Below, in pieces: positions 5,601 through 47,263 of a DNA stretch of 52,600 nucleotides. The notes beneath the pieces are model-generated. The model did not search any database. It had not been told where the DNA came from and saw only the letters and a list, made by a program, of their open reading frames with translations. The stretch spans positions 1-52,600 of IMG/VR virus record IMGVR_UViG_3300046003_005111; one strand, written 5' to 3'. The position numbers and the translations under genes are program-made. The number at the start of each line of letters is the position of its first letter. Within the stretch, counting starts at the first letter, position 1. This DNA comes from a virus. Its lineage: Duplodnaviria; Caudoviricetes.

Positions 5601-8600
5601 GATTATAATACGTGCCACCAGCCAATTTTGGTAATAACCTTTCGCTAATAACACCAATCGTACCATAAGGTATTGGTAAACCTTCTGTTGAAGGTATTAT
5701 TAACTCAGCTGCTTTAACAATTGGGATTAAATCCAATGAATTTTCAACAAAAAAATCTTGTTCAAGATTTATTAAATCTCTTTCTCTTCTATCTGTATTA
5801 GCAAACGTTCTTTCATCATATACATCTGTATTTGCGTAATAGTTAAATGTTAACGCGTTTTGTAATTGATCAACATATCTTCTTAAACCTTGTCCACCAA
5901 TATATTTAAATGACATAGTGACTTTTGCAAGCATCGGTTGTACACCAATACCTTCAGGGTTTAAATCCCATAATAACGGATCATAATTAATATTTAAACT
6001 ATTAATAATAATTTTTGTGTGATAAAAATCACCAATTCTTAAAACAGATACAGGTGGTCTACCAAACGCTGTATTCTTAGCATCGCAACCAGAAATACCA
6101 ATGTCCTTGGTGATTGTATCACCAGGTCTCATACATTGCTGTAAAAAGGTTAATCTAGCGTTTAACCCTTCAGGTGTCATCGCATGGAATGCTGGGCTAA
6201 AATATTTTAATTTTTCTTTTAAACTATCAAAAATAATCGGTGATTCTTTTGACAAATATTCGAAGTAATCACATTCTGTTAATAATTTATTAAGTATTCT
6301 TTGCGCAATCTCTCTTTTTGTAACATTGGTTGTTGGGGCTTTTTCTTCAACATACAATGGTGATGTTTCAGCTGGTGGTTCTTCTCTTTTCAAAGGAATT
6401 TCTTTTGGGGTTAAAGTTGATTTAACCTCAACCCTTCTAGCGAATGAAGCTATTCCTGATAAGTTACCGCAAACAACATCCGCTTCTGTTTTTGTTACTT
6501 GTTGAAATGATGGCTTTTGACGTATAGATACACACGTACCGATAAATTCCTTACCTTTTGTTTCCGTGTTTCCTTCTGGTAATGAAGGTATAAACGGATT
6601 TTTAATTATTTCATCGAACTCATCATATGTTCTAACCATATAATATGTTTTGTTTTCACCATAAGGAATAGCGAAATACTCTATACCTTCATCTGTTTTT
6701 AATGGTTTACCAAATAGTTTAGTATATTCATTTTCTATTTTTATATTAGGATCATCAATAGAGTCTTGATATAAATCAGCCACTGTTTGACCGCCACCTT
6801 GTTGGATGCTAAACGTAATCAATTGTCTTTCTTCTGTACCAACCTCACCTCTATAAATTATGATATTTTTAGTTGTTTCTAAATCACCATGTAATTTATC
6901 AACAACGGTTCCATCACTTATCTCTTCGTTTTCTAATGTGAAGCATTTAATATTATTACTAGTCATTACATTGAGTATTAACCATTTTGTAACCGAAACA
7001 AATCTTCTTGACGCTAATTTATCGTTATATTTCTGTAAAGCATCTTGATTTTGACCAGGAGCTGATGGTGATGCGTAAGCAAGCATAGCAATACTTATAT
7101 TATAATCTTTAACAGACGTATAATTATCCGCTGAATAAGTTGTGGCAACGCTTTCTTTTTGTTTTTTATAGTTATATGCTGGTGATTGGTTAGGGTCTAA
7201 AGGGTCCCCAAAGAAGTATTCATTACCTGCGGGCGCAGATTCACCTAAAGTATAGGCATATTGAATCCATTTCTTTTCCCCACTTTCTGAAAGAGGTTTA
7301 CCGCTTACAGTCTGTTCTTGATATTCAGAGTTTTTTTCAAGATCTATATTATTAGCTAGATTTGAATATATATTGTAATATACATCATACCCATCCACCT
7401 TGAAATCTTTAGGTTCTTTATAAATATTTTTAGATAGAGGTATATCGTTTTCAAAAAATAAATTAAATGTACCATTAATTATTGTCTGAAGCGATGGTGT
7501 TTCAATTTTAATACTTTCTTGTTGGAAACTACCTGATGATTCAACTTTAGATCTAATTTTATCATTTGGTAATCTAACATCTAAATCAGCTATAACTTTT
7601 TTAAAATATTCGATATCACTATCACTGAATACACCCCAAATTCTCGCCAACTCAAAAATGTCATAATCCAAACAACCAGCCCAGAAAGCCGCCAATAATT
7701 CATCAACCTCACCATCTGTTAAAGCCGCAAATTCTTTATCCACCAATAAGTTCATTATTGTCGGGTGATCAACAACAATATCCCATGATAATGTTCCAGC
7801 TCTTTCGGTGTTGTTATATGTGTATATTGCCTCTGGTCTACCTAAGAATTGATGTGTTGTCCAGTTTGTTGTCGTATCATCTGTAAATCTTATGTTATAT
7901 GGTGGGAACCACATAATTCTACCACCATTAGAACCTTTTTCACAAGGTGGTAAGTCTCTGAACTGAGCTGAATCTCTCCAAGCTAAGTTCTCAAGTGAGA
8001 ACATGTATTTTCTAGCTCTTTTTTCACCAAAAGCTTCAACAACAGCATCACCCAATCCATCACCCAATCTACCGTAACCTTCGTTAACATTAAGCGCTGA
8101 TGGGTGTATATTTAAATTTCCGTATCTATCCAATACAGAGTTTCTTTCTTTTCTATTTAACTCTTTCCATCTAATAAGGTCAGTTACTTTTGAGAATGGT
8201 TTTGCTTTTGTCCAAGACCTACAAAGAGAAACCTCATTGTACATTTTTTTACCATCTCTATTACCACCTCTATCTAAACCTGGTATCAGATAGTTATAAC
8301 CAGTAACCTCACCTTTTTTGTTTTTTCTTTCAACCTTAAAAGGTGATATTACATTAGAACCTTTTGATGAAAAAGTATATCCATCAAAAAATTTAGTTTT
8401 TGTTTGGTCAATAGAATTGATCGCATCATTTCTTCCACCAGCTTCCAATAATTTTTGTGTAACAGCTAATATTGAACAATCTCTAAATCTACTAGCAGAA
8501 TTTACTGATAAGCTACCGATATCCTTAATTTTACCATCCCAACTATCTGGATATGATGTCATTGCGACTGGATCCATAAAAGTTTCTTTACTCTCACCTC

Positions 8601-11559
8601 TCCAAATAAATGAAGTTTGAATTGACCCATATTTTGAAACATCTTCAACACCTGGTTCAATATAATAATTTTCAATACCACCCTCTCTCTTTATTCTAAT
8701 AGCTCTGGTTAACTCACTATTAGCTCTAACTTGTAAACCGTTATCATCTTGTAATAAATGAAATATACTAACATTTTTACCAGCTGTAATGTATGGGGTA
8801 AAAACAACATCTTCAGTACCTTTTTGAGCTTTTGCAGCTCTTTTAAATAACCTAGTATCAGCACCTCTTAATTTACTCTGATAGTCTGGGGAGTACTTGT
8901 TATTACCAAGATTTGAAAATAAGAAAAATCTTTGCGCTCTACCAGTTTCATCTAGTCTATCAATAACTCTATTTTCTAATTTATCTTCTATTCTTGAGTT
9001 ACCACTATCATTTGCACCAAAACATGTTGGTCTTAAAACAATAGAATCGTCTTCAAAGAATTCAGATGTTAATCCACCTAAATTAGTGATATCTGAAATA
9101 AAACTAGCTAATTTACCTAAACCACCTTTAAATGTTGTGATATCAGCGTTACCTCTTTCAATTATTGATGATGGGTCTTTAATAAATTCAATAACTTTAA
9201 GTGGGTTTTTTAACATATCATCAATAGTTGTTAAACCAGCCACCTCTTGAGCTGTTTTAGTTAATAGTCTTGTTTTTAAATGAAATTTTAATTCCAAGGC
9301 ACCTATTTGTGCTAATAACGTATCATTTTTTAAACCAGGTTCCGTTAATAAATTAGTGATATCTAAATTAGGACCTAATAGAACGCTCAACGGAGTTGAT
9401 GCTGTAGGTACGTTTAAGAAATCACCCATCTTTATATTAACTGGGTCGGAATTGTTTAATTTATCTTCTGTAAGATATGGATTTTGTGGTGTATTTGGTG
9501 TATTATTTAATAATAAATTCTCTAAAATTTCATAAACAATAGTATTTTCAGCACCATATTTATTGGTTACTACGTTTTTTGTATAGTCAGTTGTAAGCGA
9601 TGATAATTGTGCTTGATTAGGTACAATAAAATCATTTATCAATGTTGCTGTACCAACTGGGATAGCACCTGGGTTAGACAAAGCAAAAGCGTCTGTTGGA
9701 TCTGTTGGATCCTTTGCCATATTTTTATTAAACAAACTGATCATTATTGGACCAGATAATGTACCAATATCACCAGGGTTAACATTTGAAAATGTACTTA
9801 TTTGTGATAATGTACCTCTACCAGCTAAATATTGAGCAGCAACTGACGCACTTGGTGATAATGTTGTAATACCAGCAGCAACATCAATTGGTGTGTTTAA
9901 TGTCATTGAGATGTTTAAAGCTCTTGGTGTTACAGAGTCTGTAAGAACATCACCAGGATTAACAACATTAAAGTTATTAATTGTTGTATCTAAACCTCTA
10001 CCAGCTAAGTATTGTGATGCGATTAAACCTGAAGGTGTTAAATTAACAATACCAGCGGCGATATCAGCTGGTGTGTTCAAATTCATCGCAAGATCCAATG
10101 TTCTTGGTGCAAATGAATCGGTAACAATATTACCAGGGTTTATGTTAATATAATCATTAATAACACTATTTAAACCTCTACCAGCTAAATATTGTGCAGC
10201 CAAAGAACCGCTTAATGATGTAACCCCAGCAGTGATGTCCGCAGGTGTATTTAATGTTCGTGCAAAGTTTGAATTTCTTGGTATTACAGAGTCTGTAACA
10301 ACATTACCAGGATTTACATTAGGTAAAGTTGTAATCGCAATAAATGTACCTTTACCTGAAAGATATTGTGCAGCGTAGGCACCACTTAAATTTGTTAATC
10401 CAGCTGTTATATCAACTGGTGTACTTAATGTTTGTGCAAAGTTTTGTGTTCTTGGTCCTACAGCTTGTGTTATAACATTACCAGGATTTACATTAGGTAA
10501 AGTTGTGATAGCAACAAATGTACCTTTACCTGAAAGATATTGTGCGGCTAAAGAAGCACTAGGGCTTAAGTTATTTACACCAACAGTGATATCCGTAGGT
10601 GTACTTAATGTTTGAGCAAAGTTTTGTGTTCTTGGTGTTATGGCTTGTGATATAACGTCACCAGAGTTAACAACATTAAATGTATTGATAACACTAGGTG
10701 TTCCAAGACCTGATAAATATTGAGCAGCAAACGATGCGTTAGGTGTTAAGTTGTTTACGCCAGCGGTGATGTCTGTTGGTGTACCGATGTTCATTGCAAG
10801 GTCTAATGTCCTTGGTGCAACCGAATCGGTTACTACATCCCCAGAGTTAGTATTTTGGAAATTATTAATTACCGTAAAAGCACCCTTACCAGAAAGGTAT
10901 TGGGCTGCGTATGTTGCGTTAGGCGTTAAATTTTGTACACCAGCAGTAATATCAGCTGGTGTGTTTAATGTCATAGCAAAATCCAAATTTCTTGGTGCAA
11001 CGGCATCTGATAATACATTACCAGGGTTAATATTAATAAAATCATTAACAATTGTTAAAGCGCCTCTACCTGAAAGATACTGAGCCGCAATCGCTGCATT
11101 AGGTGTTAAGTTATTTACACCAGTAGTAATATCTGTAGGTGTATTTAATGTATGTGATAAACCCAAATTTCTTGGCGCAACAGATTCTGTTAGCGCATCA
11201 CTTGGGTTTGTATTTGAAAAATCGTTTATTACTGTTAATTGACCTTTACTATTAACTAAAGAAGCTACATAAGCAGCACTTGTAGTTGTGTTAAGTAAAC
11301 CAGCATTAATGTCAGCTGGTGTATTTAATGTTTTATTAAGGTTTGCTGTTCTTGCTGGGATACCATTAGTATCAACATCACCAGGGTTTTGTACGTTATA
11401 AAAATGTATTGCGGTATCTTGTCCCAATGAACTTAAATACGCATTAACTGTAACCGAATTAGTTAGATTAACTAAACCAGTTACAACATCAGGTGGGGCC
11501 TGTAAATTTAAATTAAGGATCACATTCCTAAACTGTCCCGATATACTATTTAAGCTCAT
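2698..11559 (-). CDS. Giant multidomain baseplate protein: N-terminal 60-aa repeats, split tube-initiator-like domain, OmpA-like insert, CBM5/12-like motif, SGT linker
   Basis: 2953 aa, directly downstream of the tape measure genes. Tube-fold halves [17 protein letters not shown]...[10 protein letters not shown]...[14 protein letters not shown] and [22 protein letters not shown]...WD...[11 protein letters not shown]. OmpA-like [13 protein letters not shown]...RRVEV. Confidence 0.65.
3547..3657 (-). repeat. 9/18-bp coding microrepeat encoding about 11 Ser-Gly-Thr units
   Basis: accagatgtcccagaggt x3 and gaagttccw x3 on the + strand; protein [35 protein letters not shown]. Confidence 0.95.
9770..11500 (-). 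repeat. About 10 tandem coding repeats of 174-180 bp (58-60 aa)
   Basis: NPG(D/N)V-type anchors near 11381, 11201, 11021, 10841, 10661, 10481, 10307, 10133, 9953 and 9773. Consensus NPGxVxTxSxxPRxxNxxxTLNTPxDITAGxxNLxPxxxxAAQYLxGRG. Confidence 0.95.
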
Positions 11560-30813: not shown

Positions 30814-33800
30814 ATGGCTGAATACAAAATATCCCTTGAAGAAATAGAAAGATTTTTAAATGGACACGATGATGAGAAATACATCGTTAATGTTGAGTAT
30901 GACGCTGAAACAAATTTAATTCATAAAATTAAACAAGACCCTGAAAAAGGTAATTTAATTGAGACAGAACCTTTAATGGCTTTTATGTGGATTAAAAATC
31001 TTAACAAGGTTAAGGATTTAACTAATTTTTATGATAACAGTGATTCTAAAATTAAATCAGCTAGACAAAGATTTGGTATTGAAATCAAATCTTTAGGTGG
31101 TGATCACCCAAAATTATTAGAAGGTTATAGATATTTAGTTACCTGTAATCAAGGTAATAAAAGAATGTTAGATTTCTTCAGAGAAGGTGGTATCTACGTA
31201 TATGACACAAGAAACGATATTAAATCACACTTTTTAATGATATCACCTGTTGAGCAATATTTTATACACACTGGTAAACGTTTGTTTAAAGGGTTTGAAG
31301 AATATGATGATATCCATAAATTTATATTTGACTTAGAGACAACAGGTTTAGACCCAAATATTAATAGAATATTCTTGATTGGTATCTACACTAATAAAGG
31401 TGTTAAAGAAATCATACCAGTTGAAAATAATGATGAATCTGAAAGACAAGCAATCACAAAATTCTTCGAAGTTATTAATAATATTAAACCAACAATTATT
31501 GCTGGTTATAATAGCGCTAACTTTGATTGGGATTTCTTTTTTGTCCGTTGCCAAAAACTTGGTTTAGATATTCAAGATATTGCGATAACACTTAAACCAG
31601 GTGAACTTATCCAAAGAAAAGAAAAAAGTATGCTTAAACTTGGTAATGAGGTAGAGGAATATACCCAAACTAATATGTTTGGTTATAGCATCATTGACAT
31701 CATACACTCAGCTAGACGTGCACAAGCGATTGATTCAAGCATGAAATCTGTTGGTTTAAAATACGTTTGTAAGTATAACAAGATCGCCAAAAAGAATCGT
31801 GTTTACATTGTCGGTGATAAAATCGGTAACACATGGTACTCAGAAGATAAATTCTATTTTGATGATAGAACTGGCGCATATTCTAAGACAAAACCAGCTT
31901 TAGAATTTATGGATTATATTCGTAGAGAAGATATCCAAGCTAACCCAGATAAAGTGTTTATTTTTGGTGATAACTTATTAAGAGAAGGTCTTGGTGGTCA
32001 GGCAAAAGAAATGCGTGGTGAACCTAATGTTATTGGTATTGTAACTAAACATTCACCTGATTCAAATCCAGAATCTTATTTCAACGACAAAGATTTTGAT
32101 AACCTTAAAAAATATATTGATTCTGATATTAATCGAATAATTGAAAAGATTAAAGAAGGTAAAACTATCGTATTCCCTAAAATGGGTATTGGTACAGGTT
32201 TGGCCCAGTTAGATATGAGAGCACCAAAAACCTTTAAATATTTAGTAGGTTTATTACGTGCATTACGTGATTATAGTAATTCTTTTCAAGAAGTTGATGG
32301 TAAATACATTGTTGAGCGCTACTTGATTGATGACTTATGGGAAACCATGGAAGTTGATGCTGTTTATAACCAATCATCATTTTTGTTAGCTAAATTAGTA
32401 CCAACAACATATCAAAGGGTTTCAACAATGGGTACTGCTGGTTTATGGAAATTGCTTATGATGGCTTATTCTTTTGAAAATGATCTAGCTATACCATTAT
32501 CTGATACAAAAAGAGATTATACAGGTGGTTTATCAAGGTTATTTAAAGTTGGATATTCAACAACTTTAAGAAAAATGGATTACAACTCACTTTACCCAGC
32601 TATTCAGTTAGCTCATGATGTATTCCCAAGTGTTGATGTTAATGGTGCGATGAAATCGATGTTAAAGTATTTTCACACTGAACGTTTTAATGCTAAAAGA
32701 TTATCTGATAAATATAAAAAAGAGGGTAACTACCAATTAGCTGATAAATATAAACGTAAACAGTTACCGCTTAAGATCTTCATTAACTCGATGTTCGGTG
32801 CACTTGGAGCCCCAATGGCTTTCCAATGGGCTGAAATCGATGTCAGTGAACGTATTACATGTACGGCAAGACAATACCTTAGATTAATGGTTACATACTT
32901 CCTTAAACGAGGTTATACACCTTTGGTTCTTGATACGGATGGTGTAAACTTTATGGCACCTAAAAACGGTGAGCATTATACATATGTTGGTAAAGGGTTA
33001 AATGATGAGGTTGAAGCTGGTAAAGAATACACAGGTGTTAAAGCTGTTGTGGCTGAATTTAACGACACATACATGCGTGGTGAAATGGGTCTTGGTTTAG
33101 ACGGTATTTGGCCAGCAACCATAAATCTATCAAGAAAAAACTATGCTTTATTAGAAGATGATGGGTCGATTAGCTTAACAGGTAATAGTATCAAATCAAA
33201 AGCTATGCCTGTTTATATTGAGGAGTTTTTGGGTAAAGGTATGAAAATATTATTGAATGGTCATGGTTATGACTTTGTTCAATATTACTATGAATATGCT
33301 GAAAAGGTCTATAATAAAGAAATACCGTTGTCTAAGATCGCTACAAAAGCTAGGGTTAAGAAGTCAATAAACGGTTATATAAATCGTGGTGGTGATAAAA
33401 ACGGTAGACAATTAGCTAAACAAGCGCACATGGAATTAGCTATTAAACATAATCTTGATGTTAATCTTGGTGATACAATTTATTATGTTAATAATGGTAA
33501 AACAAAATCACATGGTGATGCTCAGGAAGATAAAAATGGTGAAATGTATGCGACATTGGTATCGAATGAGATCATTGAGAATAAACCAGACTATATTGGT
33601 GAATATAATGTACCAAAATACTTGGAAGCTTTAAATAAAAAAGTTGAACCACTATTGGTTGCTTTTCCCCTTGAAATTAGAGATAAAATTCTTATTAAAA
33701 AACCTGATGAAAGAAAAATGTTCTTAAGATCTGAATTAGATTTGGTAAATGACCAACCAACAGATATCGAAGATCAAGACACATTACAAGAATTTTTTAC

Positions 33801-33915
33801 ACCATCCCCAATGGAAAAAGAATTCTGGGCTAAAATGGAATATGAATCAGATTATTGGTTTTCAGATAAAATAACATTCAAAATACCTGGTTTGGATGAA
33901 GAATTTACGGTTTAG
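30814..33915 (+). CDS. polB: Family B DNA polymerase with macrodomain-like insertion in the 3'-5' exonuclease
   Basis: ExoI FDLETTG, ExoII GYNSANFD, ExoIII YLIDD, PolA DYNSLYP, PolB KIFINSMFG, PolC DTDG; insert at aa ~363-486. Confidence 0.95.
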   Translation: MAEYKISLEEIERFLNGHDDEKYIVNVEYDAETNLIHKIKQDPEKGNLIETEPLMAFMWIKNLNKVKDLTNFYDNSDSKIKSARQRFGIEIKSLGGDHPKLLEGYRYLVTCNQGNKRMLDFFREGGIYVYDTRNDIKSHFLMISPVEQYFIHTGKRLFKGFEEYDDIHKFIFDLETTGLDPNINRIFLIGIYTNKGVKEIIPVENNDESERQAITKFFEVINNIKPTIIAGYNSANFDWDFFFVRCQKLGLDIQDIAITLKPGELIQRKEKSMLKLGNEVEEYTQTNMFGYSIIDIIHSARRAQAIDSSMKSVGLKYVCKYNKIAKKNRVYIVGDKIGNTWYSEDKFYFDDRTGAYSKTKPALEFMDYIRREDIQANPDKVFIFGDNLLREGLGGQAKEMRGEPNVIGIVTKHSPDSNPESYFNDKDFDNLKKYIDSDINRIIEKIKEGKTIVFPKMGIGTGLAQLDMRAPKTFKYLVGLLRALRDYSNSFQEVDGKYIVERYLIDDLWETMEVDAVYNQSSFLLAKLVPTTYQRVSTMGTAGLWKLLMMAYSFENDLAIPLSDTKRDYTGGLSRLFKVGYSTTLRKMDYNSLYPAIQLAHDVFPSVDVNGAMKSMLKYFHTERFNAKRLSDKYKKEGNYQLADKYKRKQLPLKIFINSMFGALGAPMAFQWAEIDVSERITCTARQYLRLMVTYFLKRGYTPLVLDTDGVNFMAPKNGEHYTYVGKGLNDEVEAGKEYTGVKAVVAEFNDTYMRGEMGLGLDGIWPATINLSRKNYALLEDDGSISLTGNSIKSKAMPVYIEEFLGKGMKILLNGHGYDFVQYYYEYAEKVYNKEIPLSKIATKARVKKSINGYINRGGDKNGRQLAKQAHMELAIKHNLDVNLGDTIYYVNNGKTKSHGDAQEDKNGEMYATLVSNEIIENKPDYIGEYNVPKYLEALNKKVEPLLVAFPLEIRDKILIKKPDERKMFLRSELDLVNDQPTDIEDQDTLQEFFTPSPMEKEFWAKMEYESDYWFSDKITFKIPGLDEEFTV
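31900..32271 (+). other. In-frame macrodomain-like (DarG/TARG1-type) insertion
   Basis: VFIFGDN (N387), GLGGQA loop, GIVTK (K412), VFPKMGIGTGLA loop, in macrodomain order. Confidence 0.65.
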
Positions 33916-38687: not shown

Positions 38688-38992
38688 TGATAGTATTTAA
38701 AGACCAAATAAGAGCTTATAAAGCGATCACACCTGATATTTTAAACCAAATAGAATATAAAACTGTTTGGTCTGGTAAAAGAATTGAGGTTGGTGATAAA
38801 GTTTTGTATGCGTTTGTGTACCCTTTAAATTCAGAGGATTATAAATTAGCTACATTTCTTGAGCGTGAACTTGATGAGGTTAATCAAATGTTTACGTTCA
38901 TTCAAACAATAAAAGGTATTATACCAGTGTTAAAATATAAAAATGATAATCTTGTAAGAGATTTAATCATAGAAGAAGAGAATGAGTTATAA
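38687..38992 (+). CDS. Hypothetical protein
   Basis: 101-aa ORF overlapping both neighbours. Confidence 0.6.
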   Translation: MIVFKDQIRAYKAITPDILNQIEYKTVWSGKRIEVGDKVLYAFVYPLNSEDYKLATFLERELDEVNQMFTFIQTIKGIIPVLKYKNDNLVRDLIIEEENEL

Positions 38993-40418
38993 AATTAGTG
39001 TTGTTTTCTCAACAAGAAAAATAGATGAAAATTTTATTGAGCATGTTAAGAAAACATGTATACATAAAGGTGTTGAGGTTTTGCCGTATGAAAATAACGG
39101 TGAGTATTCTTTAACAGAAATATATAATAAAGGTTTAAACGATGCGTCAAGTGACATAGTTGTTTTTTGTCACGATGACATATTATTTGAGACAAAAAAT
39201 TGGGGTGAAAAAGTTTTAAAAGCTTTTGAAAAAAACCATGAATATGGTATCCTTGGTGTTGCTGGTACTGATCATATGATTAGTGGTAGGTGGTGGCAAA
39301 TACGTAATGCCATGTATGGTACTGTTAAACATACTGACGGTACTAATGTTTGGGTAAGTAAATATTCTCAAAACTATGGTAACGAGTTAAAAGAAATGGT
39401 TGTTATTGACGGTTTATTTATTGCTGTTAATAGAACTAGGATAAAAACTATTTTTGATGATCGATTTAAAGGTTTTCATTTTTATGATATATCATTTTGT
39501 TTATCGAACCATGTTAACGGTATAAAAATAGGTTTAATCTCAAATATTTTAATATTACATAAATCCGTTGGTCAAGTTAATGAACAATGGGGTGAAAATA
39601 AAACTTTATTTGAAGAAATATATGGTAATCAATTACCAATATGTTTGAATGATAAAACAAAACATATAATCTTTGATAAAGAATTACCAAAGATCGACAT
39701 GCATGTTCTTTGTTGGAATGAAGAAAAGATAATACCTTATTTTTTAAAACACTATGAGAATTTTGTTAGTAATATTTATGTTTATGACAATATATCAAAT
39801 GATAATAGTGTTAAATTATTAAAGTCACACCCAAAAGTTACGGTAATACCATATGATACTAATGGTGAAATTAGAGATGATATTTATTTACAAATAAAAA
39901 ATAACGCGTGGAAAAACTCAACGGATAAAGCTGATATCGTTATTGTGTGTGACATGGATGAATTTTTATATAGTAATGATTTAAAAAAATCAATCAATAA
40001 ATTTTATGAAAGTGATGCGACTGTTATTAAACCAACTGGTTATGATATGGTTGTAAACGATTTCCAATTTAATCATGGTGATAAATTAACTAATCTTGTT
40101 AAAACTGGGTATAAAAATAACCTTTTTGATAAATTAGTTATGTTTAAAACAAAAAATATAACGGAAATAAATTATAATGGTGGTTGCCATGTTGCAGCAC
40201 CTAGGGGTGATAAAATTAAATTATTTGAAGGTGAATTTTTACTTTTACACTACAAAAGACTCGGTTTAAAATATTTTTTAAATAAAATGTCTGATTATAA
40301 AAAAAGGTTAAGTGAATTTAATAAAAAACATAAACTTGGTTATGAATATGAATTTAATAGTGATAAACACACCGAAGATTTTAATAAATCTTTAGGTAAA
40401 ATATCTTATGTCATCTAA
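38982..40418 (+). CDS. Bifunctional glycosyltransferase with two GT-A (GT2-like) domains
   Basis: Domain 1: YNKG...FCHDD, IDGLF, FD..F.GFHFYD, H.S.G. Domain 2: WNEE, YDN.S.D, CDMDEF, LLHYK. Confidence 0.85.
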   Translation: MSYKISVVFSTRKIDENFIEHVKKTCIHKGVEVLPYENNGEYSLTEIYNKGLNDASSDIVVFCHDDILFETKNWGEKVLKAFEKNHEYGILGVAGTDHMISGRWWQIRNAMYGTVKHTDGTNVWVSKYSQNYGNELKEMVVIDGLFIAVNRTRIKTIFDDRFKGFHFYDISFCLSNHVNGIKIGLISNILILHKSVGQVNEQWGENKTLFEEIYGNQLPICLNDKTKHIIFDKELPKIDMHVLCWNEEKIIPYFLKHYENFVSNIYVYDNISNDNSVKLLKSHPKVTVIPYDTNGEIRDDIYLQIKNNAWKNSTDKADIVIVCDMDEFLYSNDLKKSINKFYESDATVIKPTGYDMVVNDFQFNHGDKLTNLVKTGYKNNLFDKLVMFKTKNITEINYNGGCHVAAPRGDKIKLFEGEFLLLHYKRLGLKYFLNKMSDYKKRLSEFNKKHKLGYEYEFNSDKHTEDFNKSLGKISYVI

Positions 40419-40425
40419 TTCATAA

Positions 40426-40434
40426 CTATTTATA
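40426..40434 (+). promoter_or_regulatory. Putative late promoter motif CTATTTATA before the GT11 cassette
   Basis: 16 nt upstream of ATG 40451. Confidence 0.5.
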
Positions 40435-40450
40435 TTAAATAAAATACTAT

Positions 40451-41608
40451 ATGGGATTTTTTAGGATTAAAAAAATAATAAAAGATAATGATAATAATCA
40501 GGTTGATTATAATATAACAAAAGGTTTTATAAAAGAGGAAAGGTTAGGATTACCTGAAACACCAAAAAAAACAACAATAAGAAAAAGTTATACAGCTGGA
40601 AATAAAATTGAACCAAATACGGAAAAAATATCAGTGATAATTAAAAAAGGTAGTTATTCTGTTGACGTTAAAAAAATTTTTAAAGAAAAAGATATTTCTG
40701 TTGATACTGTTACTTCTGTTGATACTGTTACTTCTTTTGATACTGTTACTTCTTTTGATACTGTTACAGCTCTCGAACCTACAGAAGAAAAAATAAAAAA
40801 AAGAAAATACGGTATGAATGGTTGTGTTTTTTCAAAAACAATTGGATCCAACGGAAGATTAGGTAATCAATTATTTCAATTTGCTGCGATATATGGCTAT
40901 GCCATGGATAATAATAAAAAATATTCGGTATCAAATTGGGTTTGCGCTCGCTCTGGTAAAGATTTTAAAAAATATTTTAACGGACCGCTTATATCAACAC
41001 CTATTAACGATGAAGCGGTGGAAATAAATTATATTGAAACAGATTTTGATTATAACGAAATACCGTATATTAAAGAAAATCTTAACATATGTGGATATTT
41101 CCAATCTGAATTATACTTTAAAAAATATACTGATGATGTAATTGATATATTACAACCATCTATTGATTTACATTTAGATTTAAGGATAAAATATTCAAAC
41201 ATTAATTTTAAAAAAACAGCTTCATTACATGTTAGAAGAGGGGATTACCTATCTTTAGGTAGTTTTTATAATCAATTAACAATTGATAATTATTATACTA
41301 AAGCTATAGAAGAGTTAACAAAAAATGGGGTTGAGGATATATTAATATTCTCAGATGATATAAAATGGTGTAAAGAAAATTTTAAAGGTGATAACTTTTA
41401 TTTTTCTGAAGGGAACTCAGAAATAGAAGATTTATTTTTAATGAGTTTTTGTTCACACAATATAATAGCGAACTCAAGTTTTTCGTGGTGGGGAGCTTTT
41501 TTAAATAAAAATAAGGATAAAATTGTTATAGCACCAAAAAAATGGTGGGGTGTTATTAATAATATGAATGAAAATACCATAATACCAGAAACATGGGTGA
41601 GATTATAG
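40451..41608 (+). CDS. Alpha-1,2-fucosyltransferase-like (GT11) with ~120-aa N-terminal extension
   Basis: GRLGNQLFQ, GYFQSE.YF, HVRRGDY, FSDD..WC, NSSFSWWGA. Confidence 0.92.
   Translation: MGFFRIKKIIKDNDNNQVDYNITKGFIKEERLGLPETPKKTTIRKSYTAGNKIEPNTEKISVIIKKGSYSVDVKKIFKEKDISVDTVTSVDTVTSFDTVTSFDTVTALEPTEEKIKKRKYGMNGCVFSKTIGSNGRLGNQLFQFAAIYGYAMDNNKKYSVSNWVCARSGKDFKKYFNGPLISTPINDEAVEINYIETDFDYNEIPYIKENLNICGYFQSELYFKKYTDDVIDILQPSIDLHLDLRIKYSNINFKKTASLHVRRGDYLSLGSFYNQLTIDNYYTKAIEELTKNGVEDILIFSDDIKWCKENFKGDNFYFSEGNSEIEDLFLMSFCSHNIIANSSFSWWGAFLNKNKDKIVIAPKKWWGVINNMNENTIIPETWVRL
40696..40767 (+). repeat. 18-bp tandem repeat x4 encoding S(V/F)DTVT
   Basis: ttct(g/t)ttgatactgttac x4, in frame. Confidence 0.95.
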
Positions 41609-42423
41609 ATTTAAAAGACACCACATTCATTATACCGATAATGATAGATAGTCAAGACAGGGTTGATAATTTAACTATTAACTTAAATTTCTTAGCTAAA
41701 AATTTTAACACAAATGTTATTATTTTTGAATTAAAGAAACCAGGTTATAATGTTGTTGACAACATTATAAAAAAATTGGTAAAAAACAAATTAAAAATTA
41801 CGTATCTTTATGAGGTGGTTGAATTAACAAATGAAAGACCAGAAATAATTTTTCATAGAACAAAATACCTTAATATGATGCTTAATATGGTTAAAACAGA
41901 TTTTGTTGTTAACTATGATGTTGACGTTTTATTAAACCCATTAGATTATGTTTTATGTGTTAATAAGTTAAAAGATGATTGTGATGTGGTTTATCCGTAT
42001 TTTTTTGGTTTATCACAAAGAGCTGTATTAAATAGTGGTAAGAATAAATTATTAGAATCCTTTGATCTTAATTTATTAACAGAAAATGATTACAAACTAA
42101 ACCAAAATCGTTTTGGTTTGGCCCAATTCTTTAAAACTAGTGTTTACATTGAAGGTGGTATGGAAAATGAACATTTTATATCATACGGACCAGAAGATTT
42201 TGAAAGAGCTCATAGGTTTAAAGTTTTAGATTATAATGTTGAGTGGGCTGATATTTATATATACCATATTGAACATAGTAGAGGTGATAATAGTAGTAAT
42301 AAAAACCCATATTTTAGTAAAAATAATGAGTTATATAGTAGTCTTAATGGTTTAAATAAAAAAGAGCTAAAAATGTATTACGATACTATTGATTATAAGA
42401 ATTTATATAAAAAAAATGGGTGA
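41593..42423 (+). CDS. Glycosyltransferase, GT-A (GT7-C galactosyltransferase-like)
   Basis: TFIIP, DR..NL, YDVD, GGMENE.F.SYGPED, YHIEH. Confidence 0.85.
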   Translation: MGEIIDLKDTTFIIPIMIDSQDRVDNLTINLNFLAKNFNTNVIIFELKKPGYNVVDNIIKKLVKNKLKITYLYEVVELTNERPEIIFHRTKYLNMMLNMVKTDFVVNYDVDVLLNPLDYVLCVNKLKDDCDVVYPYFFGLSQRAVLNSGKNKLLESFDLNLLTENDYKLNQNRFGLAQFFKTSVYIEGGMENEHFISYGPEDFERAHRFKVLDYNVEWADIYIYHIEHSRGDNSSNKNPYFSKNNELYSSLNGLNKKELKMYYDTIDYKNLYKKNG

Positions 42424-43159
42424 TAAGATAAATTTTCAGAAGATTAATTTTAAATATATTAATCTAAAAAGTAGGGTGGATAGAAAAAATCGTGTTGACG
42501 CGTATTTAAAAAATAACGGTATTATTGCTGAAAGATTTGATGCGATAAAAGATTTTAGTAATTGTAATATTAATTTTGGTAAAAATTATAATGATGGAAC
42601 TAAAGGTTGTTTTTTATCACATTATAATATCATAAAAGAATATGACAGTAATAAAGTATTGGGAATACTAGAGGATGATATTGTTTTATGTAGCGATTTC
42701 ACCGAAAGATTTAAATATATTGAGGATAATTTTAACCTTGATTGGGATATGTTTTTCTTATCATCATTTTATCATTTAAACGATGATAAAAATAGACACC
42801 ATGAAACTGGTGATTATGAATTTAGTGGGATTAAATATATCCATAGAACATACGGGTCATTTTGTACGCACTCATATTTAGTTAACCCAAAATCAAAAGA
42901 AAAAATATTAAGATTAATGGAAGAGAACGTTCATAAATCAAACGCTCTCGACCACCTGTATATACTAATACAACACCAATTAAATGTTTTTGCAATAACG
43001 CCTGGTATAACAACACAACTAGGTGATCATAGTGACATAACAAACAGTATGTTAGACCATACAGATTATTTCACAAAGGTACTTGGCCAACATTGTTATG
43101 TTGATAAATTGAGTGAATTTAATTACGATGAATACTTTAAATATAAAATAACAAAATAA
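42416..43159 (+). CDS. Glycosyltransferase family 25; start at ATG 42416
   Basis: YINL..R.DR, ERFDA, GCFLSH, ILEDD, WDMFFL, THSY. Confidence 0.88.
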   Translation: MGDKINFQKINFKYINLKSRVDRKNRVDAYLKNNGIIAERFDAIKDFSNCNINFGKNYNDGTKGCFLSHYNIIKEYDSNKVLGILEDDIVLCSDFTERFKYIEDNFNLDWDMFFLSSFYHLNDDKNRHHETGDYEFSGIKYIHRTYGSFCTHSYLVNPKSKEKILRLMEENVHKSNALDHLYILIQHQLNVFAITPGITTQLGDHSDITNSMLDHTDYFTKVLGQHCYVDKLSEFNYDEYFKYKITK

Positions 43160-43163
43160 AATT

Positions 43164-43913
43164 ATGAAAGATATAGCTAAAAACATAAAAAAATACTATT
43201 TTAATAACGATGGCTTAAAATATGTGATAAATAATTTTGATTACTTAACAACCGAATACCATATTTCAAGTGATGAATATATAGACGCTTCTGGTGTCTA
43301 CGTTTTAATGAAAAGGGTTATTGATCTTATGGATAAAGATAAGGTTGTTATTGACATAGGTGGTAATTGCGGTTTAACATCAATCCCATTTTGTTTAAAT
43401 GGTTATGAGGTTTATACATTTGAACCGATTAAAATGAATGTCGATTTAATAGAGATGAATAAAATCGAAAATAAATGTGATAACTTAAATATAGTACCAT
43501 ACGCTCTAAGTGATAAAACAAAAGAGGAGATAATATATATACCGTATTGTTCTGATAACACATCTTTTAACAAAGACGTAGCTGTTAGTAATATGAATGA
43601 TAAGAGTATATGTGTTGAAGAAACCGTTAATTGTATAACATTTGATGAATGGTTAGAAAATAACGGGCAAATAAATATCGGGTTTATAAAAATAGATGTG
43701 CAAGGTCACGAAAAGAATGTTCTAGAAGGTATGGTTAATTTTCTATCAAATTGTAATGACGTTTATCTTTTTATTGAATGGGATGGAAACCACACAATGA
43801 TGTCTGGTAATACACTAGAAGAAATGGAATCGCTATTAAATCGTACTGGGTTTAATGAAAAAAACCTATTCAATAGGGATCTATATGATGATAAAATTTT
43901 TTATAAAAAATAA
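43164..43913 (+). CDS. FkbM-family SAM-dependent methyltransferase
   Basis: IDIGGNCG, FEP, ALSD, IKIDVQGHE..VL.G. Confidence 0.92.
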   Translation: MKDIAKNIKKYYFNNDGLKYVINNFDYLTTEYHISSDEYIDASGVYVLMKRVIDLMDKDKVVIDIGGNCGLTSIPFCLNGYEVYTFEPIKMNVDLIEMNKIENKCDNLNIVPYALSDKTKEEIIYIPYCSDNTSFNKDVAVSNMNDKSICVEETVNCITFDEWLENNGQINIGFIKIDVQGHEKNVLEGMVNFLSNCNDVYLFIEWDGNHTMMSGNTLEEMESLLNRTGFNEKNLFNRDLYDDKIFYKK

Positions 43914-43926
43914 AACATAAAAAAAT

Positions 43927-44691
43927 ATGAGTACAAGACAAACAAAACCAACAACAAAAAAAACAAGAAAAAAATTAACATCTGAAGAAGAGTTTGAAGC
44001 TCTTGAAGATATGAACCGTGCACATGCTGGTAATGTATTAGATAAAATGAAGGTTGATATTAAGTGTAAAACCCAAAATCAAAAGAAACTCATTACTGAG
44101 ATAAAAGATAAAGAGATTGTTATTTGTTCGGGACTCCCAGGTACAGGGAAAACTTTTTTATCTTGTGCTGTAGCTTTAGAACTTCTTAAAAGTGATCCTA
44201 GATACCGAAAAATTGTCATTGTTAAATCAGTAACAACTTTAAAAGATGAGGAAATTGGGTTTTTAAAAGGTACCATGAAAGAAAAGATGGAACCGTTTAT
44301 GTACTCTTTTATGCATAATTTTGAAAAAGTAATTGGTAAACATAGTGTTGAGCTTTTAAGAGCCAATAACATGATTGAAGAAATGCCAATTGCGTATATG
44401 AGGGGTATTAATATTGATAACTCAATCACAATTATCGATGAGGCTCAAAACATATCTATTGATAATATTAGAACTATCATGACCAGACTTGGTGAGAATT
44501 CTAAAATGATATTTTTAGGGGATGAAAATCAGATTGATATGAAAAAGAAGGGTGAAAGCTCTTTGAATTTCATCATCCAAAAATTTAGTAATTTTGATGA
44601 GGTTGGTACAGTAACATTAGGTGAAGATGATGTCGTTAGAAACCCATTGATCAAAAAAATAGAAAAAATATTTAACGAAAGTAAAATGTAG
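43927..44691 (+). CDS. phoH: PhoH-family ATPase
   Basis: GLPGTGKT, IGFLKG, YMRG, IIDEAQN, TRLG, GD..Q.D, VVRNPL. Confidence 0.95.
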   Translation: MSTRQTKPTTKKTRKKLTSEEEFEALEDMNRAHAGNVLDKMKVDIKCKTQNQKKLITEIKDKEIVICSGLPGTGKTFLSCAVALELLKSDPRYRKIVIVKSVTTLKDEEIGFLKGTMKEKMEPFMYSFMHNFEKVIGKHSVELLRANNMIEEMPIAYMRGINIDNSITIIDEAQNISIDNIRTIMTRLGENSKMIFLGDENQIDMKKKGESSLNFIIQKFSNFDEVGTVTLGEDDVVRNPLIKKIEKIFNESKM

Positions 44692-44741
44692 ACTTTATTT
44701 TAAACCAAAATTGTGTTATTTTTATATAAAAAAATGATAAC

Positions 44742-45377
44742 ATGGTAATAGGTATTACAATAAATAACATTTTAAGGGAACACATTAGTAAACTAAAGGA
44801 TTTATATGAATTTGAGTTTGAAAAAGAACCCATTTTACCTATAAATCCTTTTGATTTATCTAAATCATTCCCAGATATTGAAGGTGAGATTGTCGACACT
44901 AATTTTGAGGTTGGTAAAGAATTAGAGTTATCTGAAAATAAAAAAGATAATTCATTTAACCTGAGTAAATTCATGTATGAAGATGCGTGTTTTGAGGTAT
45001 TTGGTCGAGTTGAGGAAAGTCAACCTGGTATCATTAAACAAGTATGTGATTTCTCTAACAAAAATAAAATCAAAATCGTATTATTAAATAATGAAAGCCA
45101 AAGATCTAAATCAGCTACATTATTCTTCCTAAGTAAAAACTATTATAATTTAGAACAGATAATCTTTCCAAGCAAATGGAAAGATTTTTGGTCGTATTGT
45201 GATATCTTGGTTACCGATAACCCTAAGTTATTAAAAAACAAACCAAAAGATAAAATATCTATAAAACATAAAAACGATTTTAATGTTGATATTAAATCGG
45301 ATTATACTATAATTAACATTGAAGAATTATTTAAAATTTTAAAAAAATTAAAGAAAGAACAAAATGGAAAAAACTAA
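44742..45377 (+). CDS. HAD-fold 5'-nucleotidase-like protein with degenerate catalytic motif
   Basis: IGITINNIL in place of IGIDxDGV; K..W..CDILVTDNP as motifs III/IV. Confidence 0.5.
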   Translation: MVIGITINNILREHISKLKDLYEFEFEKEPILPINPFDLSKSFPDIEGEIVDTNFEVGKELELSENKKDNSFNLSKFMYEDACFEVFGRVEESQPGIIKQVCDFSNKNKIKIVLLNNESQRSKSATLFFLSKNYYNLEQIIFPSKWKDFWSYCDILVTDNPKLLKNKPKDKISIKHKNDFNVDIKSDYTIINIEELFKILKKLKKEQNGKN

Positions 45378-46446
45378 CGAAATAGTTAAAAACATTGAGT
45401 CGGCTATAAGCAAGATTCAAAACAAAGAACAAAAAATTGTTTTTTTGGTGCCAGACACCAAAGGTAACGCTAAATCAAGCGTTATCCACCTCTATAAACA
45501 AGCGTTAACACTTAAAAATTTAGGTTATAGTGTTAGTATGTTACATGAGAAAAATGACTACATTAAAGTTGGTTCATGGTTGACACCAGAATGCGATGAA
45601 TTAGAACATTTATCAATTGAAGATAACAATCTTGTTGTTGGGGCTTCTGATTTTATCATAGTACCAGAAGTGTATGGTAACGTATTTGAACAAATTAATA
45701 AAATGCCTTTAGAAAAGGTTATTTACATACAATCATTTGATTATATGCTTGAAGCTTTCGCACCTGGTAAATCTTGGGTTGATTTAGGTGCTGAAGAATG
45801 TATAACAACGTCAAACTCACTTAAAACATTGATTGAGGATACGGTTCCAGTTGTAGATGTTCAATTTATCGAACCATCGATTTCAGATAAAACGTTTACT
45901 TTAAACGATAAACCACAAAAACCTATTATTGCTATCTATTGTCGTGAGGCTAGAAAAGCGGCAAAAATTATCAAATCATTCTATTTGAAATACCCTATTT
46001 ATAGATTTGTTTCATTTAAAGATATGCATACAATGCCACAAGATACTTTTGCTAATAACTTAAAAGAATGTTGTGTTTCTATATGGATTGATGATGATTC
46101 GTCATTCGGTAGATACCCAGTTGAATCTATTAAGTGTAATGTACCTGTTATTGGTAAAGTACCTAATATTATCCCAGAATGGATGACAGATGAAAATGGT
46201 GTTTGGGTTTATGATGAAAATCAAATACCCGAAATTTTATCTAGTTACATTAAAAATTGGTTAGAAGATACTTTACCAGAGAATTTATTAAATGTCGCAA
46301 AAACAGTTGAAAATAAATACACTGAAGAAGTTTTTGAAAAGAATACTAAAGAGGTTTATGAATACCTTTTCAATAAAAAAATCTCGAAATTAGAAACAAT
46401 AAAAGAAAATTTTAAAAAAGAAGTAGAACAAAATGAGCAAAACTAA
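45364..46446 (+). CDS. Glycosyltransferase-like protein, GT-B fold
   Basis: DFIIVPE, SSFGRYPVESIKCNVPVIG resembling the GT4 E.FG...EA..CG.PVI motif. Confidence 0.7.
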   Translation: MEKTNEIVKNIESAISKIQNKEQKIVFLVPDTKGNAKSSVIHLYKQALTLKNLGYSVSMLHEKNDYIKVGSWLTPECDELEHLSIEDNNLVVGASDFIIVPEVYGNVFEQINKMPLEKVIYIQSFDYMLEAFAPGKSWVDLGAEECITTSNSLKTLIEDTVPVVDVQFIEPSISDKTFTLNDKPQKPIIAIYCREARKAAKIIKSFYLKYPIYRFVSFKDMHTMPQDTFANNLKECCVSIWIDDDSSFGRYPVESIKCNVPVIGKVPNIIPEWMTDENGVWVYDENQIPEILSSYIKNWLEDTLPENLLNVAKTVENKYTEEVFEKNTKEVYEYLFNKKISKLETIKENFKKEVEQNEQN

Positions 46447-47263
46447 TTTAACAGTTATAATCCCAGTACACTCAGTTGCTGATATTGGGAAACAAAAATT
46501 TGATGATTTATTCGATATCGCATTATCGTCTATTAGTAGAAATGAGGTTAAACCAGAAAAGGTTTTAATTGTAAGATGCAATTGTATTGAAGTTGACGCT
46601 AAATTAGAGTCAATTGATTTAACAAAATATGATTTAAATATTGAAATCATAACAAATGATGGTGATACTGATTACCAGAGCCAAATAAATTACGCGGCTA
46701 AGCATGTTAACACCGAATACATGTCAATTTTGGAGTTTGATGATGAGGTATCAAAAACATGGTACAGTAATGTTAAAACACATGTTGCGGCCTACCCAGA
46801 AGTTGATATGTTTTTACCTATTGTTAATGATGTTTCTGAGGACAACAACTTTATAGGTTTATCAAATGAAGCTATTTGGGCTTATAATTTTAGTGAATCA
46901 CTTGGTAATGTTGATTTAGAGTGTTTATTAGAATACCCGAATATCAACCCTTGTGGTATGGTTATTAAAACAGCTATTTTTAACGAGATTAATGGGTTTA
47001 AACAAATCAAATTAACATTCAACTATGAGTTTTTACTACGTTTTCATAAAAACGGTTACAAGTCAATGGTTATCCCGAAAATCGGTTACAAACACGTTAA
47101 TATGAGGGAAGAATCGTTGTTCTGGTTATATAAAAACAGTGAAGCTGTAGAATACAAAATGGACCCTAAACAAGCATTATTTTGGATGGAAACAGCTAAA
47201 AAAGAATATTTATTTAACGATGATAGACATATAATATATGAGGAAAATGAGGTTATTGAGTAA
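46433..47263 (+). CDS. Glycosyltransferase family 2
   Basis: TVIIPVH, N......TEY..ILEFDD, INGF, YEFLLR. Confidence 0.8.
   Translation: MSKTNLTVIIPVHSVADIGKQKFDDLFDIALSSISRNEVKPEKVLIVRCNCIEVDAKLESIDLTKYDLNIEIITNDGDTDYQSQINYAAKHVNTEYMSILEFDDEVSKTWYSNVKTHVAAYPEVDMFLPIVNDVSEDNNFIGLSNEAIWAYNFSESLGNVDLECLLEYPNINPCGMVIKTAIFNEINGFKQIKLTFNYEFLLRFHKNGYKSMVIPKIGYKHVNMREESLFWLYKNSEAVEYKMDPKQALFWMETAKKEYLFNDDRHIIYEENEVIE

Follow-up and report, generated by a model that had tools for sequence, protein, structure and literature searches.

Why should the replicase of a phage carry an additional domain in the middle of its proofreading exonuclease, and what might that domain do there? The question is raised by a gene at positions 30814..33915 (+ strand) of IMG/VR virus record IMGVR_UViG_3300046003_005111. 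Positions 1 to 52,600 of this record, called the window below, were analyzed here; they are a 52.6-kb piece of the genome of a large tailed phage, and CheckV puts its completeness at 18%. The gene encodes a family B DNA polymerase (PolB) of 1033 residues, and the additional domain, some 115 residues long, is a member of DUF7831, a large and mostly viral family without assigned function. An earlier reading made from the letters of the sequence had taken this insert for a macrodomain of the DarG/TARG1 type and a possible eraser of ADP-ribose on DNA. That proposal is partly supported: the predicted fold and the domain context point to it; no sequence statistic does.

The insert itself is unambiguous. 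Pfam family PF25176 (DUF7831) matches it with an E-value of 5.7e-44 and 149.2 bits (cut-off 27) over profile positions 2-116 of 118, which shows it to be a genuine domain; chance resemblance would not give such a score. A six-frame search placed the match (153.9 bits) at 31903..32247 of the + strand, i.e. aa 364-478 of the polymerase. PHROG 2072, which is unannotated, matches the insert as well. The domain lies in frame between the ExoII and ExoIII motifs. In an alignment with 16 relatives the insertion site falls exactly between '..TGAY-SKTKPA' and 'FQEVDGKYIVERYLIDD' (the ExoIII side), the polymerases are co-linear on either side of it, and the insert-less relatives (908-951 aa) have a 12-residue linker at this place. 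There is no support for an intein or any other kind of self-splicing element, since no Pfam family except DUF7831 matches the insert.

Judged by its matches and motifs, the host protein is a family B DNA polymerase in which all exonuclease and polymerase motifs are present. The gene was identified from the open reading frame (ORF) list together with Pfam and PHROG. Pfam families DNA_pol_B_exo1 (E 5e-11), RNase_H_2 (E 3e-9) and DNA_pol_B (E 7e-9) match the ORF, DNA_pol_B_exo1 and DNA_pol_B exceeding the Pfam cut-off, as does the DNA polymerase family PHROG 262 (E 2e-45). The motif known in family B polymerases as ExoI is FDLETTG (aa 172-178, 31327..31347 on the + strand, like all features that follow), located in the translation. 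ExoII is GYNSANFD (aa 231-238, 31504..31527), conserved in 17 of 17 aligned PolBs, and ExoIII, located by motif and by the PolB alignment, is YLIDD (aa 503-507, 32320..32334). Polymerase motifs A (DYNSLYPA, aa 589-596), B (KIFINSMFG, aa 654-662) and C (LDTDG, aa 706-710), located in the same way by motif, span 32578..32943. The sequence-only reading was thus right that the insert is in frame between ExoII and ExoIII with every catalytic motif intact, and its residue numbers (N387, GLGGQA, K412 and GIGTGLA) are correct by motif location.

Within the insert, conservation is concentrated in a few short motifs. FGDN (aa 384-387, 31963..31974) lies by alignment and model at the end of the second strand. 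It is followed by the glycine-rich loop 1, GLGGQA (aa 392-397, 31987..32004), whose N387-x6-GG spacing is like that of the MacroD type, and by RGEPN (aa 401-405, 32014..32028), in which R and N are invariant across the family alignments. IVTK (aa 409-412, 32038..32049) ends the third strand by the same two lines of evidence, and the glycine-rich loop 2, GIGTGLA (aa 458-464, 32185..32205), comes after the fourth strand, as placed by motif and model. The 28 intact PolB inserts compared all retain nine residues, N387, G392, G394, Q396, R401, N405, K412, P455 and G460; of these, K412 is also present in at least 90% of DUF7831 family members. An alignment of 93 family members has the D, Q, R and N invariant.

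What fold do these motifs sit in? Two AlphaFold2 models were used. Model 1, of the window insert with a 48-sequence alignment, has a predicted local distance difference test score (pLDDT) of 90.2 and a predicted template modelling score (pTM) of 0.83. Model 2, of a stand-alone homologue 44% identical to the insert in alignment and built with 93 other sequences, has a pLDDT of 96.8. Both have the same order of secondary-structure elements: a short strand, a helix, the FGDN-ending strand, glycine loop 1, a short helix, the TK-ending strand, a long helix, the P-ending strand, glycine loop 2 and a long C-terminal helix. Each model was compared with all 48,161 PDB representatives using the VIA structure aligner (Z of about 8 is the tool's 'clear' level; rows within 1 Z count as tied). 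For model 1 DarG (5m3i) came out at the top with Z 6.5 (root-mean-square deviation 3.7, 109 residues aligned), followed by the BT1257-like protein 2afc (6.2), Poa1p (6.0), the alphavirus nsP3 macrodomain (5.9), CbiL (5.5) and TARG1 (5.5); macrodomains made up 15 of the 20 top chains. Model 2 gave 2afc (7.0), DarG (6.8), Poa1p (6.3), the alphavirus macrodomain (6.3) and CbiL (6.2), with macrodomains in 17 of the 20 top places. On a second look TARG1 with ADP-ribose (2l8r) reached Z 6.9 against model 1, and for model 2 DarG stood at 6.8 and Poa1p at 6.0-6.3. The top neighbours form one sequence-related clade, because a DarG sequence profile run against the PDB retrieves TARG1, Poa1p and 2afc/2fg1 (as well as the macro-scaffold design 4ess). 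That macrodomains should dominate the top ranks over thousands of three-layer alpha/beta folds is real but not decisive evidence for a reduced macro-like fold.

Several structural results weigh against this view. The top Z scores, 6.5-7.0, are below the tool's clear level of 8, the models have four strands where macrodomains have six or seven, and the N-domains of CbiL methyltransferases reach Z 5.5-6.2. The comparison by Foldseek with macrodomains, which the sequence-only reading had suggested, came out against it: neither model matched a macrodomain, or anything else in the PDB, at E<=1e-3. Of the DarG/TARG1-like macrodomain claimed there, what stands is that such domains are the best structural neighbours of two models; the low Z, the four strands and the want of a sequence link speak against the rest. 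The best Foldseek rows were dual-specificity phosphatases (E 0.03-0.05, TM about 0.3). A phosphatase fold was set aside, as those chains score only Z 3.6-4.3 in VIA. A SLOG- or LOG-like reading, suggested by the LOG motif PGGxGTxxE, found no support: neither wide search had a LOG, DprA or YpsA chain among the 50 rows it listed, an absence that does not exclude a SLOG-like fold.

On the sequence side, no method tied DUF7831 to macrodomains. Pfam Macro (PF01661) matches none of 48 DUF7831 members and nothing in the window (E<=10), and the PADLOC DarG model likewise matches none of the 48; a single member matches ThsA_Macro (E 0.13) and a single one the PADLOC ThsA1 macro model (E 0.02). A DarG reference set was built by searching for DarT in 301 genomes, 17 of which had it, and taking from 11 loci the gene that follows darT. 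Every one of these 11 genes hits Pfam Macro, with E from 5e-17 to 1.5e-26; PADLOC DarG was run on three of them and hit each (E about 1e-132 to 1e-141). A MacroD/YmdB-type set of 18 sequences was what remained of 30 fetched ORFs after 12 failed a motif filter, at least five of these being in the wrong frame. With hhalign, DUF7831 against DarG gave a probability of 12.6% with smaller alignments and 1.7% (score 18.6) with larger ones (195 and 130 rows). Nine of 60 column- or block-shuffled DarG controls reached the score of 18.6 (mean 16.1, standard deviation 3.1), and a reversed profile reached 20.3. Against the 18 MacroD-type macrodomains the probability was 0.7%. With DarG and MacroD combined it was 18%, for a match of 44 columns around loop 2. 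The positive control, in which DarG was set against MacroD, reached 94%.

Is there any local likeness in these alignments? K412 of the TK motif falls opposite the invariant lysine of the DarG motif NFPTK, whose role in DarG is catalytic, although the alignments in which it does so are not significant. FGDN and GLGGQA, in turn, are not set on macrodomain loop 1, which counts against the idea. Loop 2 is the only stretch of the insert with a local profile match to macrodomains: its strand-P-x-x-GIGTG (VFP-KM-GIGTG) aligns locally with macrodomain loop 2 (AFPA-ISTG or IPPLGxG). By eye, the spacing N387-LLREGL-G394G395 equals the NAAN-x6-GGVD of the fetched MacroD sequences, but motif likeness by itself is weak evidence. 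The co-linear macrodomain motifs described in the sequence-only reading therefore hold as to order and N-x6-GG spacing by inspection, while hhalign gives them a support no better than that of shuffled profiles. We also know of no macrodomain counterpart of RGEPN, with its invariant R401, E403 and N405, a further point on the negative side. Nor is the insert a DarG antitoxin in the strict sense, for it is a domain of about 115 residues within a PolB, with neither a DarT-binding C-terminal domain nor a darT neighbour. The 52.6-kb fragment, which is only part of the genome, also contains no DarT (E<=1), NADAR or Macro gene, and this too tells against the proposal. Searches of PDB chain sequences were uninformative: with the insert, phmmer found only cytochrome c (E 0.94), and the family profile found only a loop of triosephosphate isomerase (E 0.02), taken as a common phosphate-loop pattern and not as homology.

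The company that DUF7831 keeps points to ADP-ribose chemistry. Pfam was run on 41 longer DUF7831 proteins chosen from 150 listed (some long ones were omitted), and 25 of these had no second recognized domain at E<=1e-6. Among the partners found were NADAR (six proteins), DUF4326 (three), a circularly permuted YpsA-SLOG domain (three) and DUF488-N3a (two). One protein combines AAA_33, UvrB_inter and MuF, one is an N4-type virion RNA polymerase of 4126 residues (P0379), and one, already included in the NADAR and DUF4326 counts, joins both of these to helicase-type AAA_19/AAA_30 domains. Canonical Macro was found in none of the 41. A network of NADAR, DUF4326, SLOG and Macro domains has been assigned to ADP-ribose processing in virus-host conflict in the relevant passages of Iyer et al. 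2022 (PMC9503650), and a jumbo-phage survey describes, in a passage on DUF4326, fusions of this domain to DNA replication components also (PMC7824862). With NADAR, DUF4326 and SLOG as its partners, DUF7831 has the neighbours that a domain for ADP-ribose processing should have, and it takes the place that Macro occupies in that list.

In bacterial genome contigs DUF7831 occurs at 29 loci, chiefly in Pyrinomonadaceae and alphaproteobacteria; of the 105 ORFs listed for bacterial loci, 70 were scanned against Pfam. Two Pyrinomonadaceae loci (L001:5500-9638 and L003:5499-9633) contain a block in which a gene for single-stranded DNA-binding protein (SSB) is followed by DUF7831, a 565-639-aa protein, a second SSB and RNase H; the 565-639-aa protein has no Pfam match. 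In one locus the DUF7831 gene adjoins that of a 930-aa C5 DNA methylase protein, and others have prophage-like settings. Two acidobacterial metagenome-assembled genomes labelled Pyrinomonadaceae have giant ORFs with DUF7831, of 1553 aa (L011:5911-10569) and 2044 aa (L020:5260-11391). Both carry DUF488/DUF488-N3a, the second also carries YpsA-SLOG, and the first comes directly after a MobL relaxase. With their boundaries drawn as open frames, these ORFs have the look of polyvalent proteins with which conjugative elements counter host defence.

How is the insert distributed among polymerases? We compared 121 related PolBs, namely the query and its 120 best polymerase matches. A strong DUF7831 match (E<1e-10) was found in 76, a weak one in six and none in 39, so that the insert is patchy, as had been anticipated for the closest phage PolBs in the sequence-only reading and as the alignment also bears out. 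The six weak matches are five decayed inserts and one N-terminally truncated fragment. At least seven PolBs (P0185-7 and P0203-6) retain an insert of 92-134 residues that has lost FGDN, GLGGQA, TK and GIGTG. A FastTree phylogeny was made of 52 of the 121 PolBs (28 with intact, eight with decayed and 16 with no insert; chosen by the authors) after removal of the insert columns, with a midpoint root only. In this tree intact inserts fall on both sides of the root, the insert-less forms make up one clade of 15 plus a single sequence, and decayed inserts occur at four or more places. On the simplest reading of this tree, whose root is a midpoint only, the insert would be ancestral in this polymerase group, an old insertion followed by repeated deletion (at least twice) and decay.

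One close lineage may be undergoing such change now. P0129, P0132 and P0135 are 77-84% identical to the window enzyme outside the insert and 44-46% identical within it, and their glycine loops are eroding: FGDN has become YDEN, YSDN or YSEN, GGQA has become GQQS or GEQS, and GIGTGLA has become VPGNGES or GIGTDSS. In this lineage the insert alone appears to evolve fast or to be beginning to decay. Repeated loss, decay and fast divergence mean that the insert behaves as an accessory module under shifting selection, in the manner of a counter-defence module, and not as a core part of the enzyme. It is all the same retained over PolBs down to about 48% identity, and this one polymerase group offers a natural experiment on when the function of the domain is needed. 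One homologue, P0175 (1392 aa), has in its precomputed Pfam list the intein-type families PF14528 and PF14890 in addition to the DUF7831 insert, so that inteins too are hosted by this polymerase group.

DUF7831 as a whole is far larger than its polymerase branch. With a profile made from 48 homologues, 2600 representatives of clusters at 50% identity are retrieved when the threshold is E<=1e-3, and 2058 when it is E<=1e-10. Most homologues are stand-alone proteins of about 125-140 aa, all of them unnamed or 'hypothetical'. The nearest Atlas clusters are 73-92% viral, and the protein atlas returned DUF7831 clusters only. Homologues occur in 102 of 50,697 GenBank phage records, from hosts that include Caulobacter, Rhizobium, Brevundimonas, roseobacters and cyanobacteria; among the 60 GenBank phage matches listed, none lies under a polymerase gene. 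Given this distribution of homologues, the PolB-insert architecture is common in metagenomes and absent, among the matches listed, from deposited phage genomes. Predicted structures from giant viruses and crAss-like phages also match DUF7831; in BFVD, the matches A0A7M1RTM7, A0A7M1RV35 and A0A7M1RU68 are DUF7831-like folds within crAss-like phage proteins of 1278-1451 aa. The best match of the family profile, P0243 (300 aa), has two DUF7831 stretches and is a tandem duplication. A literature search found no paper that names DUF7831 and none on a PolB into which a macrodomain or DUF7831 is inserted; the architecture is thus undescribed in the literature searched. The sequence-only reading had known of no PolB built in this way, which agrees with that search, although the arrangement turns out to be common in metagenomes.

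What might the domain do on a replicase? Tentatively, and with a confidence that stops somewhat short of even, we take the insert to be a macro-like ADP-ribose binder or hydrolase carried by the replicase, which would remove DarT-type adducts that stall synthesis. The models suggest a compact three-layer alpha/beta domain, a stripped-down macro-like module that would bind or hydrolyze ADP-ribose or a derivative of it, with the GLGGQA and GIGTGLA loops, D386/N387, Q396 and K412 at strand ends lining the putative binding site. Inserted in a surface loop of the proofreading domain, the module would sit on the replisome, where single-stranded DNA is exposed, and there its most likely job would be to strip off ADP-ribose attached to single-stranded phage DNA by DarT-type toxins and so to keep synthesis from being blocked. 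That ADP-ribose is the ligand, that it is hydrolyzed, that DNA is the substrate and that action is at the fork is what we infer. That such a module would act at the fork as an eraser of ADP-ribose on DNA is plausible. A more specific form of the idea, in which the DUF7831 module meets the template or primer strand and removes adducts in cis and in step with synthesis, making the replicase self-repairing, strikes us as rather doubtful.

DarT modifies single-stranded DNA, and the ADP-ribosylation of DNA by DarT blocks phage replication; NADAR is a guanine-specific eraser, and conjugative elements also enter cells as single strands. The eraser reading fits because DUF7831 is fused to NADAR, has genes near SSB and occurs in proteins of conjugative elements. 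Phages are in fact reported, in passages of PMC13309987 and PMC11825919, to erase DarT marks with a macrodomain, AdfM, and a NADAR protein, AdfN, and polymerase mutations are described that let phages escape DarT (parts of PMC11825919 and PMC11481870). A point to the contrary is that phage Macro, NADAR and SLOG domains are held, in the passages of Iyer et al. 2022 (PMC9503650) that deal with them, mainly to target soluble ADP-ribose derivatives.

This last point leads to the main alternative, in which the domain processes soluble ADP-ribose derivatives of host immunity (isomers of cyclic ADP-ribose, ADP-ribose-1''-phosphate or O-acetyl-ADP-ribose) and the polymerase is simply its early-expressed carrier, as polyvalent phage proteins are for other domains. 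The partners NADAR, DUF4326 and YpsA-SLOG are the very set assigned, in the same parts of that work (PMC9503650), to countering diffusible derivatives of this kind. Poa1p, a near structural neighbour, is an ADP-ribose-1''-phosphate phosphatase; most family members are free-standing proteins of about 130 aa, and some reside in virion-packaged giants (MuF, virion RNA polymerase). For mere co-expression, however, a loop of an essential enzyme would be an odd place, above all one kept down to about 48% PolB identity, and the stand-alone genes adjoin those for SSB, RNase H and DNA methylases. On balance we hold this alternative to be doubtful. A Rossmann-like module that binds nucleotides or phosphate and has no relation to macrodomains or ADP-ribose seems to us unlikely. 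Its substrates might be DNA ends, modified bases or nucleotides, and the candidates include phosphoesterases, nucleotide hydrolases and methyltransferase-like domains. A module of this kind would account for the missing sequence link to macrodomains and for the invariant R401, E403 and N405. It is also in keeping with the scores of CbiL/tetrapyrrole-methylase N-domains (Z 5.0-6.2) and T4 polynucleotide kinase (Z 4.8-5.4), the weak Foldseek phosphatase rows (E 0.03-0.1), the resemblance of P-x-x-G-I-G-T-G-L-A to a generic phosphate loop (the triosephosphate isomerase match at E 0.02) and one partner architecture with a kinase-like AAA_33 domain (P0280). It fares badly in the structure searches, where, out of 48,161 chains, the 20 best include 15 macrodomains for one model and 17 for the other and all other three-layer folds together supply 3-5, and badly too with domain partners that are ADP-ribose enzymes.

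Could the insert do without catalysis altogether? It might be a sensor of NAD+ or ADP-ribose that tunes proofreading or synthesis, or a structural docking surface in the replisome. Some macrodomains are indeed readers and not enzymes (general knowledge, and stated in part of Iyer et al. 2022), and a scaffold can persist without the putative active site, since at least seven PolBs keep inserts of 92-134 residues that lack the conserved motifs. The retention of N387, Q396, R401, N405 and K412 in 28 of 28 intact inserts is, however, more typical of catalysis, and the same domain exists as a free protein of about 130 aa in many phages; we regard a non-catalytic role as very improbable.

To return to the macro-like eraser, how does it compare with systems already known? 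Its nearest relatives by structure are in the DarG/TARG1/Poa1p clade (5m3i, 2l8r/2lgr, 6lfq and 2afc), with Z 5.5-7.0 to the two models and 107-114 residues aligned. Both run, in the same order, through an Asn-ending strand and its Gly loop, then a Thr-Lys-ending strand, then a strand-Pro-Gly-x-Gly loop followed by a helix. They differ in that no profile link is detectable and in that DUF7831, shorter by about 30 residues, is predicted to have four strands where the clade has six or seven. DUF7831 also has the invariant RGEPN, and it lacks both the DarT-binding C-terminal domain of DarG and a DarT neighbour.

Phage answers to DarT include free erasers (AdfM and AdfN), toxin binders (AdfA and AdfB) and point mutations in the polymerase. 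AdfM (PhiKZ gp104, a macrodomain) and AdfN (the NADAR protein of T4) are phage-borne, as DUF7831 is, and remove ADP-ribose from DNA according to passages in PMC13309987 and PMC11825919; there is a further tie to AdfN in the NADAR fusions (six of 41 multidomain proteins). Whereas AdfM and AdfN are free proteins of recognized families with activity shown, DUF7831 lies inside a polymerase and is known here from sequence and models. The DarTG escape mutations (SECphi18; LeRoux et al., via passages in PMC11825919 and PMC11481870) resemble the present case in that the replicative polymerase handles an ADP-ribosylated template, but they are point mutations thought to permit bypass, whereas here a whole domain lies within the exonuclease. 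Polyvalent proteins, as treated in sections of PMC9503650 and PMC7824862, offer a third parallel, for DUF7831 occurs in giants with NADAR, DUF4326, YpsA-SLOG, MuF or virion RNA polymerase and near a relaxase; the searched passages of these two papers have no DUF7831 and no polymerase insert. What we describe would be, in this light, a phage ADP-ribose counter-defence of known type in an undescribed architecture. If the eraser reading is true, a replicase with its own eraser would merge two of the known anti-DarT routes and core replication enzymes could absorb counter-defence modules; lesion removal coupled to synthesis would be a new principle of counter-defence in such an enzyme. It would also provide the first function for a family of about 2600 clusters (50% identity) in phages, giant viruses and conjugative elements. 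Independently of the eraser reading, a link between DUF7831 and the chemistry of ADP-ribose would give thousands of proteins from phages, giant viruses and plasmids an annotation.

The rest of the window is that of a tailed phage, with genes for a tail sheath, a T4-type baseplate protein, an SNF2 helicase, PhoH and dUTPase and a glycosyltransferase block. The sugar-modifying run at 38982-47263 comprises glycosyltransferases of the GT2 type, GT11 (the fucosyltransferase family) and GT25 together with an FkbM methyltransferase, and has the PhoH gene (43927-44691) in its midst. A minus-strand ORF of 2953 aa at 2698-11559 has as its sole Pfam signal a collagen repeat at aa 2635-2671 whose 23.2 bits fall short of the 27.2-bit cut-off, and lies upstream of ORFs of 919 and 860 aa, both without a Pfam match; it probably encodes a giant tail fibre or virion protein. 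GC skew is negative in the left half of the window (1-28000), whose long ORFs mostly use the minus strand, and positive in the right half (28000-52600), whose long ORFs use the plus strand. It changes sign near 24-28 kb, the site of the divergent SNF2 helicase and GP88-like genes.

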